DNA from: Candidatus Cloacimonadota bacterium
Lineage (GTDB): Bacteria; Cloacimonadota; Cloacimonadia; Cloacimonadales; TCS61
Direction: 5' to 3'
NCBI GenBank assembly: GCA_030628755.1
Contig: DAOVQH010000001.1
Location: 1-27,310, forward strand
DNA: 27,310 nucleotides
The translations under genes and the position numbers were made by a program. The notes under the pieces were generated by a model. The model was not told the origin of the DNA and made no database searches. It worked only from the letters and a program-made list of their open reading frames with translations. This document shows, piece by piece, positions 6,890-18,658 of this stretch; position 1 is the stretch's first letter, and each line of letters begins with the position of its first letter.

Positions 6890-8749
6890 TTAACGAAGAA
6901 GGATCATTTTCTTAATCGCTTTTGTTTTATTGTTAACTACTAATTTATATAAGTAAATCCCTGAGCCAACGGGTTGGTTATTTTCATCGGTGCCGTTCCA
7001 GATAACCTCTCTTGTTCCTAAACCCCTGTTTGGGAACAAATCAAAAGTTCTTACCTTCTGACCTTTGATATTGTAAATTTCAAGATTCACAAACGGGAAT
7101 CCGTCTGAGCCAGACACAGCGCTTTGTGTTACAGAAAAATAAATCGTTGTTGTCAGTTTGAATGGATTAGGATAATTAATTACATAATTAATATTATCTT
7201 GAATTGAATTTTCCATTGCTGAAGAAGTATCAAGAATCTTGAAATCGGAAACTACAGGTAAGTGGTCAGAAGCATTGGTAACATCATCGGGGAATAGCCC
7301 ATATGCTGCTAATGTATCTGCTTCCATTTCAGGAGTAAATAAAACAAAGCTGTTCTCAGAATAGAGCACATAATCGCTGTAGATCATGAAATCCAAACGT
7401 CCAGGAGAATACGAGCTGGATTCGGAAAACCAGGTATAATACATCAGTAATTCCGTCTGACGTGGCGTTAGATCCCAAAAATCACTTCCATCCCAGTCCG
7501 GGGAAAAACTGGGTCCAAATTGCGGGTTAACGATTTCTCCGGTAATCAGTGTTTCCAGTTGTTGAGCATATCCCACCAGATTCAAATCACCTGAAATTAA
7601 AATAGGTGTATTCTCTACCAGTTCAAGAACTCCTCCGGGTTCTTTAGCTTCTCGAATAAATGCCATCAACTCATCAATTTCCAGTTGGCGTTCGATGTTC
7701 TGATTTCCCGAAGATAGATGAGCAACAATGAATAAAAGCTGGCAGTTATCTTGTGAGGATAGATCGATAAGAAAAGCACCACTTCTGTTTATCTCATAGG
7801 ACTCAAGTATCGGAAAACGACTGACTGCATAAACATCATCATTATATATCAAGGAGCAATACCACTGCTCTTCCGGTCCTGAAGGTAACATTGATTCTAC
7901 CAATGCTTGAACTTCCTGAGCTGTATAATAATAAATTTCCTGGAAACCGATTATATCAGGATTTATTGCGGAGAGGATTCTATCATAAGTATCATATAAG
8001 GAAGGTTCGAATATACTGTTATTTAAAACATTGTAGGTTAAAACTCGAAAATCCGTATCAGGTGCTCGTTGGAGGGAGATCTTTGTAATTGGTGGAAGAG
8101 GAGTTTCATCAAAATCATAGGAAATGGTTTCTTCAGAATTTGGCAGCATATCCTGACCGGGACCAGCATCATGGAATACAATTTTAAAAGAACTCTCAGG
8201 AAATAAATTATAACCGAATGGAGTAGAAGTTCTATCAATTGCTATTTCAAAAATGTTTGAAGATACAGTGGGAGCAGTAACGATTCCAATATGTTCATGG
8301 TAAATCGTATATGAATTAGAGGATATGAAAAATAATCCTTGCCGATCACCAAAATCCCATTTCACATCCGCACCGATTCCATTGATCTGGATGCCTGTAT
8401 TTTCATTGTTATCAGTATCCAGAAAAAGTGAAATCTGGTTGTCATTTTGAATATTGAGCTCTTCTCCGATTTCGATGTATAAAAACAGGAAACGTTCATC
8501 ATTGGCAATTTTTAATTCTCCAAAATCAAGAACTCCATATATTTGGTCTCCAATTGTATCGGAATAAAGTGTAGAAAGCGAATCCCAATCAGTGAATTTC
8601 CCCTCCAACCAGATTCGTGCTGATTGACCTCTGAGATTTGATTTTTTATTAGAAAATAAAAAAGATTGTCCATCCTGACAAAGATATGATCGTGAAAGAA
8701 ATATGGTTATAATTGTTACAAAAAGAAACGAAATATAAGTTTTTTTCAC
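6890..8749 (-). CDS. Secreted endonuclease/exonuclease/phosphatase (EEP) family protein with an N-terminal beta-sandwich-like domain and a FlgD-Ig/T9SS-like CTD
   Basis: GTG start with AAGGG RBS and a hydrophobic N-terminus. EEP motifs TYNV, DIIGFQE, HLSSG, GDLN, RLDFM, SDHLPV. CTD motifs NYPNPF, IYNIKGQKV, SGIYLYKL. Confidence 0.88.
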   Translation of the reverse strand: MKKTYISFLFVTIITIFLSRSYLCQDGQSFLFSNKKSNLRGQSARIWLEGKFTDWDSLSTLYSDTIGDQIYGVLDFGELKIANDERFLFLYIEIGEELNIQNDNQISLFLDTDNNENTGIQINGIGADVKWDFGDRQGLFFISSNSYTIYHEHIGIVTAPTVSSNIFEIAIDRTSTPFGYNLFPESSFKIVFHDAGPGQDMLPNSEETISYDFDETPLPPITKISLQRAPDTDFRVLTYNVLNNSIFEPSLYDTYDRILSAINPDIIGFQEIYYYTAQEVQALVESMLPSGPEEQWYCSLIYNDDVYAVSRFPILESYEINRSGAFLIDLSSQDNCQLLFIVAHLSSGNQNIERQLEIDELMAFIREAKEPGGVLELVENTPILISGDLNLVGYAQQLETLITGEIVNPQFGPSFSPDWDGSDFWDLTPRQTELLMYYTWFSESSSYSPGRLDFMIYSDYVLYSENSFVLFTPEMEADTLAAYGLFPDDVTNASDHLPVVSDFKILDTSSAMENSIQDNINYVINYPNPFKLTTTIYFSVTQSAVSGSDGFPFVNLEIYNIKGQKVRTFDLFPNRGLGTREVIWNGTDENNQPVGSGIYLYKLVVNNKTKAIKKMILLR

Positions 8750-15383: not shown

Positions 15384-16397
15384 TTATATAACTCTTTTAA
15401 ATTTAACTTTCTTTTTAAATATAATAAGTGATTCGATTATCAAAAGCAACAAAGCTGCAATTACAAAATATTTGTATTGTTCTTTATAACGAACGAATTC
15501 TCTGGAATCGAATTTCTTTTTTTCAATGGCATTTATATTCTTCATAATTTCGAAGATCTCTGACTGTTGAGGTGTAATAGGGAAGAACCTGCCATTACCT
15601 ATTTTTGCGATGCGGGTCAACGTGTTGATATCAAGTTTCGTAAAAATTATATCTCCTTTATCGTCTTTAGCATAAACCACATTGCCGGTTGCTTCCTTAA
15701 TTGGTATAGTGCTTCCTTCAGGGGAGCCGATACCCAGGGTATAGATTATTGCATTCTGTTTTGCTGCTTCATTAGCGATTTTAATGGCGTTTTCTTCTAA
15801 ATCTTCTCCATCACTTACTACAATTATGACTTTATGTTTTTCTTCTTTCTTAAAAAGAGTGACAGCATTTGAAATTGCTCCACCGATATCCGTACCATAA
15901 GAGGGGACAGTTTCCGTATCGAGTAAATTTAGAAACAACTTTGCTGCACCGTAATCATTTGTAAGAGGGCATTGTACAAAGCTTTTGCCAGCAAAAGCAA
16001 TTATGGCAATCCTGTCTCCTTTAAGCTGATCGATAAAAAGCGATATCTGGTCTTTTGCTCTATCGATGCGGCTGGGTTTGATGTCCTGTGCATCCATACT
16101 TTTTGAGACATCGATGCAGACAACGATATCAATTCCTTCTTTTCTCACTATTTGAACTTCTTTATTCCAGCGTGGTCTGGCTATGGCAATGATCAAAAAG
16201 AATATCGCAAAGATAAAAATCACATTTTTCAGAGACCAGTGAAATGTGGAAAATTCCTGCATGTAATATTCATAGAACTTACTCTCTGCAAACTTTTCAA
16301 AGTTCTTTTTCCGCTTGTGATTAGCAATCCCGAGATAAACAAGAAAAATCGGAATTAACAGTAAAAGAAATAATAAATATGGATTTCCCCATTGCAT
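15384..16397 (-). CDS. batB: BatB-like von Willebrand A domain membrane protein
   Basis: N-terminal WGNP BatA-like TM segment, ARPRW, MIDAS DVSKSM, SDGED, C-terminal TM helix. Confidence 0.88.
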   Translation of the reverse strand: MQWGNPYLLFLLLLIPIFLVYLGIANHKRKKNFEKFAESKFYEYYMQEFSTFHWSLKNVIFIFAIFFLIIAIARPRWNKEVQIVRKEGIDIVVCIDVSKSMDAQDIKPSRIDRAKDQISLFIDQLKGDRIAIIAFAGKSFVQCPLTNDYGAAKLFLNLLDTETVPSYGTDIGGAISNAVTLFKKEEKHKVIIVVSDGEDLEENAIKIANEAAKQNAIIYTLGIGSPEGSTIPIKEATGNVVYAKDDKGDIIFTKLDINTLTRIAKIGNGRFFPITPQQSEIFEIMKNINAIEKKKFDSREFVRYKEQYKYFVIAALLLLIIESLIIFKKKVKFKRVI

Positions 16398-16442
16398 TAA
16401 AATCTCCGATCACATTTTTTTTGATAATAACATTTCGTTATG

Positions 16443-16493
16443 GTCATTCCCGACTTGCCTGCTCTGTTGAATAATGAGGTTCGGGAATCTATT
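16443..16493. repeat. GTCATTCCC...GGGAATCTATT palindrome with a 22-bp insert in its loop
   Basis: Removing 16458-16479 gives a 29-mer that is 25/29 identical to 3657-3685. Confidence 0.75.
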
Positions 16494-16554
16494 GTTGTTT
16501 ATGGAATGACATTTTAAATTTTTCATTTTATTCTTCCTTTTAATTTCACAAACC

Positions 16555-16725
16555 AAGGGTTCTGCAAAATAAAGTGTTTGTCATCCTGAAGAATTCTACT
16601 TGCTGTTGCCTTGAAGGATCTCCGCTTATAATGAGACTGTGTCCGGCTCAGACGGATTCTTCGAAGGTTTGCCTTTGTAAGTTTTCCTCAGAAAGACATA
16701 TATTTTCCTATTTTGCAGAACTCCT
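16555..16725. mobile_element. Putative 171-bp MITE with 17-bp imperfect TIRs and an 11-bp target-site duplication
   Basis: Left TIR aagggttctgcaaaata (16555-16571) matches the reverse complement of 16709-16725 (aggagttctgcaaaata) at 15/17. Identical tttcacaaacc flanks both ends (16544-16554, 16726-16736). No coding capacity. Confidence 0.75.
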
Positions 16726-16726
16726 T

Positions 16727-16752
16727 TTCACAAACCTGAGGTTTGTGTTACA
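16727..16752. repeat. TTCACAAACC-TGA-GGTTTGTG-TTACA palindromic element (MITE target)
   Basis: Inverted arms cacaaacc/ggtttgtg. The same flanks (ttcacaaac, tttgtgttaca) occur at 7086-7133. Confidence 0.75.
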
Positions 16753-17742
16753 TCACGGTATTTCCTTCCTTATCACGATTCTAAAAGTAAATTCTAATAA
16801 AATTATCACAAAAGCAAAAATTAAATATCTCCAGAAAAGTTCCTGGTAGATAAAGTAATCATTAATCTTCAATTCTGTTTTTTCCAGTTTGTCAATATAT
16901 TCGATGATAGCTTTTAATTCTTCTGTATTTGTAGCTAATCTTGCTTTTTCTGTTCCTGTCATTTTGGCAATTTTATTCAAAGTTTCCATATCAATATCGA
17001 TTTTAACCTTTTGATATCGTATTCCAAATTGTGTTTGAAACGGGTAATCAACCAAACCTTTACTACCAACTCCGACTGTGTAGACCTTAACCCCGAATGT
17101 GGTTGCAAGCTCTGCTGCGGTAAAAGGATCGATTTCACCAGCATTATTTCGTCCATCTGTTATCAGAATAATTACTTTTGACTTAGCTTCGGAATCTTTA
17201 AGACGGGCAACAGCTGTAGCAAGCCCCATCCCAATAGCAGTTCCGCTGGCATCTTCGTTGATTTTCATCTCTTGCATAATTAACATCAGGATGTTATAAT
17301 CCAGTGTTAAAGGGCATTGAGTATATGCATTCTCGGAAAAAACAATTAGACCAATTCTATCGTTCCGACGGTGATCTATGAAATCGATAGCTACTTTTTT
17401 TGCGGCTTCCAGACGGTTTTTTGGTTTGAAGTCTATCGCTTTCATACTACCACTCACATCGATGGCAAGGATAATATCAATACCCTTTCCTGTGATCTGT
17501 TGCCTTTTATGCGAAAATCTTGGACGAGCCAGAGCAATAACTAAAAGAACAATCACAAGCGTTCTCAAAACTACAGGAATAAATTTTAAAATGCTGCTTT
17601 GCCCTGCGACTTCCTTTAATAAATCTACTCTGCTGTGTATCAGGCGAACTCTCTTTTTTCGCTTGATTATTAACTCAAAAAGAATATATGGAATTAAAAT
17701 CAGGAAAACCCAAAACCAGTTTGGATAAACAAACTCAAGCAT
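16753..17742 (-). CDS. batA: BatA-like von Willebrand A domain protein
   Basis: Start corrected to ATG 17742 (MLEFVYPNW, GGAGG RBS). LARP, MIDAS DVSGSM, TAIGMGLATA, LITDGRNN. Confidence 0.9.
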   Translation of the reverse strand: MLEFVYPNWFWVFLILIPYILFELIIKRKKRVRLIHSRVDLLKEVAGQSSILKFIPVVLRTLVIVLLVIALARPRFSHKRQQITGKGIDIILAIDVSGSMKAIDFKPKNRLEAAKKVAIDFIDHRRNDRIGLIVFSENAYTQCPLTLDYNILMLIMQEMKINEDASGTAIGMGLATAVARLKDSEAKSKVIILITDGRNNAGEIDPFTAAELATTFGVKVYTVGVGSKGLVDYPFQTQFGIRYQKVKIDIDMETLNKIAKMTGTEKARLATNTEELKAIIEYIDKLEKTELKINDYFIYQELFWRYLIFAFVIILLEFTFRIVIRKEIP

Positions 17743-18658
17743 TTTTATCCTCCTTGGTTTCGGTTTCCTTTTCAAAAGATCTGAGATAATTCTCCAGCCA
17801 CAACAATGATTCTTCGGATTCTTTCGTTTTAGGTATAAATTTCGCAAATTTGACTTTGTCTGTAAATGTTAGGAAATCGAGAATCTGTGTTTTTTCTTTG
17901 AAATTTTCAAGCTGGAGGTTTTCTCTAATTTCATTTGTTGTCATTTCAACAGCATTTATTCTGTAATGAAGTTCAATGAAAAGCCTTAAAATAAAGGAGA
18001 GTTGATAATAGAAAATCAGGAAGTCACCCTTTTCAAGCAGTTTATCATTCTTAAGTTTTTCCAGAAGTTCCAGTGCAATTTGATGTGGAGGTCGCTTATC
18101 TATAATTTCAGGAACTATTGCTTTTTTGGGCTTTTTCTTCAATAATTTTATTAAATATTTAATTATAATAATGATAAGAAGGAGAGCAATTATCGGTAAG
18201 AAATAATCCCAGAAACCCAGGTTCAGTTTTAATGGTTTTGCAATATCTTTTATGGTTTCCGAACTATCTGTGAGAACTGATTCAACATGTAAGATGAATT
18301 CTGAGGTTCTAAGAAAAGATAAACTATCACCGGTTTTAACAGCAAATTCAAGTTCAGGGAAAGTGAATTCCCCAGTATCGAATGGTTGGAAAGTGTAATC
18401 TAATTTAGTGATTTTATGTTCTTTTTCTATTTCCTCGCTGGATTTTATATCTTTTAAAATGAAAATATCAAGAGTATCGATTTCAGGTGCGAAAATGCTG
18501 TCTGCAGGATTTGTTGTGATATCGATAAGAACATGGAAAGGTGTGCCGAGATAAAGTTTTTCAGGCTTTTCTAATTTGTGCACGATTTGCTGAGCAAACC
18601 CCATAATTGGAAGTGATAGTAAAAGTATAATTAACAATACAACTTTATTTCTATTCAT
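17735..18658 (-). CDS. Bat-operon-associated membrane protein (N-terminal Ig-like domain, TM helix, C-terminal helical domain)
   Basis: Signal peptide, QPFDTGEFTFP, central TM, EMTTNEI and DKVKFAKF motifs. Located between DUF58 and batA and overlaps the batA start. Confidence 0.8.
   Translation of the reverse strand: MNRNKVVLLIILLLSLPIMGFAQQIVHKLEKPEKLYLGTPFHVLIDITTNPADSIFAPEIDTLDIFILKDIKSSEEIEKEHKITKLDYTFQPFDTGEFTFPELEFAVKTGDSLSFLRTSEFILHVESVLTDSSETIKDIAKPLKLNLGFWDYFLPIIALLLIIIIIKYLIKLLKKKPKKAIVPEIIDKRPPHQIALELLEKLKNDKLLEKGDFLIFYYQLSFILRLFIELHYRINAVEMTTNEIRENLQLENFKEKTQILDFLTFTDKVKFAKFIPKTKESEESLLWLENYLRSFEKETETKEDKNA

Follow-up and report, generated by a model that had tools for sequence, protein, structure and literature searches.

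The window, i.e., the whole stretch of 27,310 nucleotides that was analysed, is contig C80 of a Candidatus Cloacimonadota MAG (2.36 Mb in 324 contigs, 34% G+C, 81% complete). Here, a pair of batA- and batB-like genes is located on the minus strand, with MoxR and DUF58 genes upstream of the pair, and the spacer between the two genes harbors the features listed below together with the flanking genes (coordinates refer to the window).

15384 to 16397, minus strand: batB-like gene (VWA and BatA N-terminal domain; Pfam VWA_2 6.9e-22)
16398 to 16407, minus strand: retained Shine-Dalgarno spacer of batB, GGAGATTTTA before the ATG (compare GGATAATTT in congeners)
16408 to 16543, no strand assigned: rest of the lineage-specific spacer, including a GTCATTCC...GGAATGAC REP-like hairpin at 16443-16510; absent in six congeners
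16410 to 16526, minus strand: 38-codon open reading frame inside the lineage-specific spacer (Shine-Dalgarno sequence AAGGAAG at 16533-16539)
16544 to 16554, no strand assigned: left copy of the duplication (TSD), TTTCACAAACC
16555 to 16725, no strand assigned: MITE of 171 bp, subfamily A of the GTTCTGCAAAATA-TIR superfamily, identified from its TIRs and multi-copy family
16555 to 16571, plus strand: left TIR, AAGG followed by GTTCTGCAAAATA
16579 to 16698, no strand assigned: MITE body, predicted to fold as two imperfectly complementary arms, GTCATCCTGA... and ...TCAGAAAGACA, around a central hairpin GAAGGATCTC / GAGATTCTTC
16637 to 16656, plus strand: 20-nt micro-repeat CTGTGTCCGGCTCAGACGGA on the 3' side of the central hairpin (boundary ambiguous by the dinucleotide GA)
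16709 to 16725, minus strand: right TIR
16726 to 16736, no strand assigned: right copy of the duplication (TSD), TTTCACAAACC
16727 to 16752, minus strand: host REP-like hairpin, GTAAC-headed, TGTAAC-ACAAACC-TCA-GGTTTGT-GAA, beginning directly after the batA stop codon
16755 to 16753, minus strand: stop codon TGA of batA
16753 to 17847, minus strand: batA-like gene (VWA and BatA N-terminal domain; Pfam VWA 2.2e-22, BatA 5.5e-10)

The ends of the 171-bp element share the core GTTCTGCAAAATA, which is perfectly inverted (13/13) at 16559-16571 and 16709-16721 and which is found twice in the window, compared to 0.14 occurrences expected by chance. The outer four bases match at two of four positions (AAGG vs AGGA), and the 17-bp TIRs proposed in a preliminary description of this DNA are therefore perfect in their 13-nt core but identical at only 15 of 17 positions over their whole length. 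The same description had reported a 171-bp element with a perfect 11-bp duplication, which is confirmed by the two flanking copies of TTTCACAAACC (11/11 identical). This word is the left arm of the host hairpin, i.e., of the palindrome CACAAACC-TGA-GGTTTGTG at 16729-16747 (8-bp stem, -7.1 kcal/mol, z = -2.9), so that the palindrome had rightly been named as the insertion target. The entire element is predicted to fold as a single long imperfect hairpin (-23.4 kcal/mol, z = -3.25). The only long frame running through it, a 91-codon GTG frame, continues into the antisense strand of batA and is not regarded as a gene.

The element is not unique in its genome. The core GTTCTGCAAAATA is found there in 20 exact copies (reversed word, 1) and in 73 copies at up to one mismatch (reversed word, 7), and pairing of inward-facing ends yields at least 25 TIR-bounded elements of 130-289 bp in addition to solo ends. 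The 25 copies have in common the end consensus A[AT]G[AG]GTTCTGCAAAATA, while their bodies are of several types. Exact repeats with a minimum length of 8 nt (8-15 nt) border 13 of the 25 copies, compared to 7 of 2000 random placements. With the TIR taken as 17 nt, the duplications in this genome are 10-11 nt long, and the words duplicated are AT-rich and unrelated. The superfamily has duplications of 8-16 nt in other genera, a range wider than that of most DDE families. The number of copies and the excess of flanking repeats support the MITE with a genuine TSD that the preliminary description had proposed.

Contigs of public genomes that bear the same TIR are mostly labelled Candidatus Cloacimonadota. 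Over this phylum the TIR family is scattered patchily, with enrichment in several genera and in a second family: exact cores number 20 in the genome studied here, 0-6 in each of eight congeners and 9-21 in genus g12, and genomes of a second family of the class contain 41-100 TIR sites at up to one mismatch vs 5-9 sites of a control word. In the literature, the TIR words were found only as unrelated primers, and no paper was found that joins Cloacimonadota and MITE.

The alignment of subfamily A also revealed at least four hot spots in the MITE body that take different small inserts. One of these holds a 39-nt hairpin just inside the left TIR, while others hold, after GTCATCCTG, GC-rich hairpins that vary (23-45 nt) and are in part nested in turn. 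Inserts are carried at site 1 by copies C77, C101 and C134:6453, at site 2 by C71, C77, C129, C131, C153, C163, C210 and C223, and at site 3 by C129. Some subfamily-C elements (body CACCTCACC...GGTGAGGTG; L179, L182, L183, G019) seem to have only one recognisable TIR and run straight into a gene start; these may be one-ended or decayed copies.

The state of the locus without the element is seen in related genomes. In all six congeners in which the junction is assembled (G001, G003, G004, G006, G007 and G008), the sequence reads TGA-GGATAATTT-ATG on the minus strand, i.e., only 9 nt separate batA from batB, and in G006 the flanks are 94% and 92% identical to the two flanks in the window. The empty batA-batB spacer that the preliminary description proposed to look for in relatives is therefore present, and the 9-nt junction implies that the MITE and the whole 345 nt (16408-16752) were gained in the lineage of the genome studied here. 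The description also considered the insertion to be recent. This part holds in the sense that the event postdates the split from congeners with 92-94% identical flanks, the only sense in which the sequences would allow "recent" to be read; the nearest other copy of the window MITE is just 91% identical, so that a very recent burst is not visible.

With the MITE set aside, the spacer shows little similarity to other parts of the genome except for the hairpin at 16443-16510 and the host palindrome, and the segment 16408-16543 has partial matches in other genomes. The motif GTCATTCCCG of the spacer hairpin is found in 34 copies, half of which are located outside TIR elements. A scan of metagenome contigs for the hairpin joined to batA did not reveal an allele in which the hairpin is present and the MITE is missing. 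The 345-nt spacer is bracketed on the minus strand by the 5-nt word GTGAT (CC-GTGAT-GTAAC... and ...AAT-GTGAT-CGGAG, with boundaries at 16752/16753 and 16407/16408); these words may have arisen by chance or may be a trace of the arrival of the first insert.

These data are, with high probability, explained by a 171-bp MITE that was moved in trans and landed in an arm of the REP-like hairpin with the 20-nt unit already aboard. The REP-like hairpin would have been added earlier, just after the batA stop codon, and the MITE would then have entered its left arm, mobilised by a trans-acting transposase (most likely of the DDE class) whose staggered cuts are 10-11 bp apart. The two insertions and further repeat DNA would have turned the ancestral 9-nt junction into the 355-nt spacer. 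The 20-nt unit is a separate dispersed micro-repeat that was part of the MITE lineage before transposition. What we infer from this arrangement is the transposase class, the order in which the spacer had grown earlier and a possible effect on expression of the bat operon.

A cognate autonomous transposase, which the preliminary description had expected, was found neither in the genome itself nor at the transposase loci of TIR-rich relatives. Both sets were searched with models PF01609, PF00665, PF13751, PF01610, PF12762 and PF00872, each returned locus was scanned for the TIR, and the inverted repeats of the locus itself were listed. The genome contains no match to the DDE_Tnp_1, rve, DDE_Tnp_1_6, ISL3, IS1595 or IS256 models, and about 60 transposase loci from the TIR-rich relatives lack the TIR and have different ends of their own. 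TIR pairs with a spacing of 0.5-4 kb, inspected in about 140 loci, showed no extended similarity and were attributed to chance, and contig starts ending in the TIR were all MITE bodies. Multi-copy open reading frames of the genome were also considered as transposases and were rejected, being metabolic genes. MAGs readily lose IS copies, and the absence of an autonomous element is therefore weak evidence.

The suggestion that the TIRs recall IS1182-like ends finds a loose skeleton match (GAG..CTG..CAAAA), but IS1182 ancestry did not hold. Elements of the IS1182 family are found in 87 of 232 genomes of the phylum, and their ends are of the GAGGCTGTCTCAAAA type; no TIR was found within two mismatches in 29 loci. 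Ten IS1182-family copies have duplications of 0-2 nt, vs 10-11 nt for the MITE, and the genome studied here lacks a DDE_Tnp_1_6 gene. With both the ends and the duplication length being different, an origin from IS1182 is not supported.

According to an alternative explanation, the whole element would be a REPIN-type doublet, moved as single-stranded DNA by a RAYT (Y1/HUH) enzyme rather than by a DDE transposase. The genome would offer such enzymes. Its 18 Y1_Tnp matches (9-13 in congeners) comprise four genes of the IS200/IS605 type and about 14 RAYT-like genes of 165-226 amino acids (for example loci L311-L315, i.e., C6:788-1351, C160:5266-5772, C70:222-806, C308:13130-13762 and C233:2623-3180), each flanked by its own hairpin family; the five that were tested all match NF047646 (REP-associated tyrosine transposase), three of them above the curated cut-off. 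The element itself is, moreover, a long hairpin. However, Y1 transposition leaves no target duplication, in conflict with the flanking repeats at 13 of the 25 copies, and the flanks of the 14 RAYT-like genes inspected hold neither the TIR nor the body motifs. The arm motifs TTGTCATCCTG and CCTCAGAAAGACA and the central motif GAAGGATCTCCGCTTATAATGA reside within TIR-bounded copies in 11/14, 14/16 and 14/14 cases, respectively, and the arm motifs were not seen as free singlets in this genome. This explanation is therefore considered very improbable: the RAYTs could plausibly drive the REP-like layers, but the MITE makes duplications and does not fit them.

The same observations bear on the REP doublet that the preliminary description had placed inside the MITE as an independent layer. 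The two internal arms of that doublet are the halves of the hairpin body of the MITE, and members of the superfamily in distant genera retain a TGTCAT...ATGACA frame just inside the TIRs. Because the arm motifs are, in addition, nearly confined to TIR-bounded copies, the doublet is not a separate layer, and the proposed four-layer nesting is reduced to three layers, i.e., the hairpin, the MITE and the 20-nt unit.

In 15 of the 25 copies, one end of the element is located 12-32 nt upstream of a start codon, mostly at 23-28 nt, while 7.4% is expected for random intergenic positions (binomial p about 2e-11, with crude ORF calls). The typical layout is a TIR, a 10-14-nt AT-rich stretch (the TSD), GGAG, 6-8 nt and ATG, and is also found in other genera (L178, L240, L248, L255 and L258). 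The common target of the TIR family is an AT-rich stretch just upstream of the Shine-Dalgarno sequence, and the bias toward start codons could reflect either target choice or retention by selection. The copy in the window fits the rule through the 38-codon frame: the left end of the MITE is 28 nt from the ATG of this frame, which stops 12 nt before the batB ATG. The frame runs across REP-like hairpin repeat DNA, has no homologue in the eight congeners and is probably fortuitous.

This fixed distance to start codons, the location within an operon and the strong structure (z = -3.25) would also be expected if the segment acted in the bat operon as an intercistronic RNA or as a regulatory element, for example as a hairpin for processing or stability or as an internal promoter, with the repeats as a by-product. 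Yet the six congeners have only a 9-nt spacer at this junction, and other copies adjoin unrelated genes. The element has no Rfam match, promoter and terminator scans yielded nothing above chance level, and the position next to an outward -10-like word varies between copies. A regulatory origin of the segment is accordingly regarded as very unlikely.

The host palindrome, in turn, is a member of a dispersed GTAAC-headed hairpin family, which looks like a REP family. A 26/26 identical copy of the hairpin is found in another genus, related GTAAC-headed hairpins are present in genera g9, g12 and g13, both single and in tandem, and about twenty copies reside in the genome studied here, some with extra loop inserts. 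At the batA-batB site of the six congeners the hairpin is absent, and no RAYT-like gene with flanking GTAAC-type hairpins was found in the 81%-complete assembly. Hairpins are not the usual target of the TIR family; only two of the 25 copies (the window copy and C210) reside in one. A GTAAC-headed hairpin of this family is also found inside a T9SS-CTD-like coding sequence (window 7086-7133), in a form that is empty in C26, C36 and C211 and filled in C75, C104, C119 and C122. That the 11-nt "duplication" is a second, partial GTAAC-type hairpin arm, joined to the element by recombination between repeats and thus no footprint of transposition, is the least probable of the explanations considered: the duplicated word does belong to a dispersed repeat family and the spacer is a patchwork of repeats, but the left copy is exactly 11 nt long, abuts the TIR in the register of other copies with unrelated AT-rich words and has no further hairpin part beside it.

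The trans-mobilised MITE thus remains the preferred explanation, and it carried the 20-nt unit CTGTGTCCGGCTCAGACGGA with it. The preliminary description had noted that this unit is also found in protein-coding genes, and it does occur in five coding sequences of the genome; a 19/20 copy in the window (7100-7119) is located on the other strand inside a coding sequence. In the alignment of subfamily A, the unit is present in six copies and absent at the same spot in eight; the empty form reads TAATGA-GATTCTTCG and is short of exactly the 20 nt. In three haplotype groups, a filled and an empty copy are most closely related to each other (C77/C163 0.98; C223/C134b 0.98; C210/C128 0.95; C153/C184 0.94 in the left arm), which would mean that the unit was gained or lost more than once at the same site or that copies have recombined. 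Filled MITE copies are common in congeners, and together with the sister copies that have or lack the unit, this observation indicates that the copy in the window inherited the unit. The claim that the unit interrupts the second arm is therefore supported in that the unit is an insert, but it arrived as part of the MITE rather than by insertion at this locus. A search for an orthologous filled and empty pair between species matched paralogous repeat families instead. In copy C153, a second insert of 19 nt, related to the unit, is located at a different position.

The unit is found in 17-18 copies in the genome, in at least four unrelated contexts; its 18-nt core has 18 copies at up to two mismatches, while the reversed word is found nowhere. 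The core is also present in three other genera, and within the genus in seven of eight species. Outside the MITE, the unit resides in a third repeat, in the five coding sequences and in the loops of GGTTCAGGTT...AACCTGAACC hairpins, the hairpins found on either side of the RAYT-like gene at C160:5266-5772. In the coding copies, the empty form GTAACACAAACGTCCTCGTTTGTGAC (three genes) becomes 21 nt longer, i.e., seven codons are added in frame; in five genes the hairpin loop carries this addition, and the encoded TQTSSFV becomes TQSAVSGSDGSSFV. The unit alone forms no significant hairpin (z = -0.6). A connection of the unit with the RAYT gene on C233 was considered and rejected, as only a partial look-alike is found 246 nt downstream. 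In a leader-like repeat family (C267:6080-6290 and C108:1-260 vs L297, L300 and L303; G006 and G004), genomes differ by a composite insert of 49 nt with the 20-nt unit at its end. A tentative possibility is that the unit is a mobile element itself, an SDR-like micro-insert outside the cyanobacteria that repeatedly enters hairpin loops or loop-proximal stems and is moved by one of the many Y1/HUH transposases of the genome or by an unknown enzyme. If this somewhat doubtful reading were correct, the hairpins entered would include REPs that flank RAYT genes, the central hairpin of the MITE and the coding hairpins of T9SS C-terminal domains, where 21 nt equal seven codons.

From a comparison with known systems, the element in the window is an ordinary kind of bacterial repeat, i.e., a MITE nested in REP-like DNA. 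Bacterial MITEs include Correia/NEMIS in Neisseria, Nezha in cyanobacteria and RUP in Streptococcus pneumoniae. As in these families, the elements described here are 100-300 bp long, lack an open reading frame, have TIRs and a TSD, number in the tens of copies and are intergenic and gene-proximal, with a body that folds as a long hairpin. In contrast to them, the TSD is 10-11 nt in the genome studied here (8-16 nt over the superfamily) and not TA, the family has no known parent insertion sequence, the body is modular with hot spots for inserts, and the ends lie about 25 nt before start codons. IS1397 and ISKpn1 are IS elements that insert into REP sequences. Insertion of IS elements into REP sequences has been described (Tobes and Pareja 2006, PMC1525189, cited in PMC3116915), and, as far as that citation describes these cases, they resemble the present locus in that a transposable element is found inside a small extragenic palindrome, but differ in that hairpins are not a general target here.

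REP and REPIN elements with RAYT transposases (Bertels and Rainey 2011, PMC3116915) are similar to the small hairpins of this genome, which are short palindromes with a conserved 5' head (GTAAC), are both dispersed and clustered, and reside in a genome with many RAYT-like genes that each have flanking hairpins of their own; the MITE body, in contrast, is no such doublet. For the 20-nt unit, the closest described counterparts, to the extent that they are presented in the same paper, are the small dispersed repeats (SDR) of heterocystous cyanobacteria (Elhai et al. 2008, cited in PMC3116915). In the terms given there, the unit is likewise very short, dispersed and nested in other repeats, with filled and empty hosts. 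It differs from the SDRs, as they are presented there, in that it comes from another phylum, measures 20 nt, has no significant hairpin of its own and is also found in frame in coding hairpins.

At batA-batB, a 9-nt operon junction has been extended to 355 nt purely by stacked repeats. More generally, the TIR family is phylum-wide and has ends about 25 nt before start codons, and such a family can be mistaken for leaders or riboswitches in the annotation of Cloacimonadota MAGs. Of the features of the locus, the 20-nt unit may become the interesting one, for the enzymology of such small inserts. With its many hairpin families and about 14 RAYT-like genes, the genome lends itself well to work on REP-type mobility beyond the Proteobacteria.
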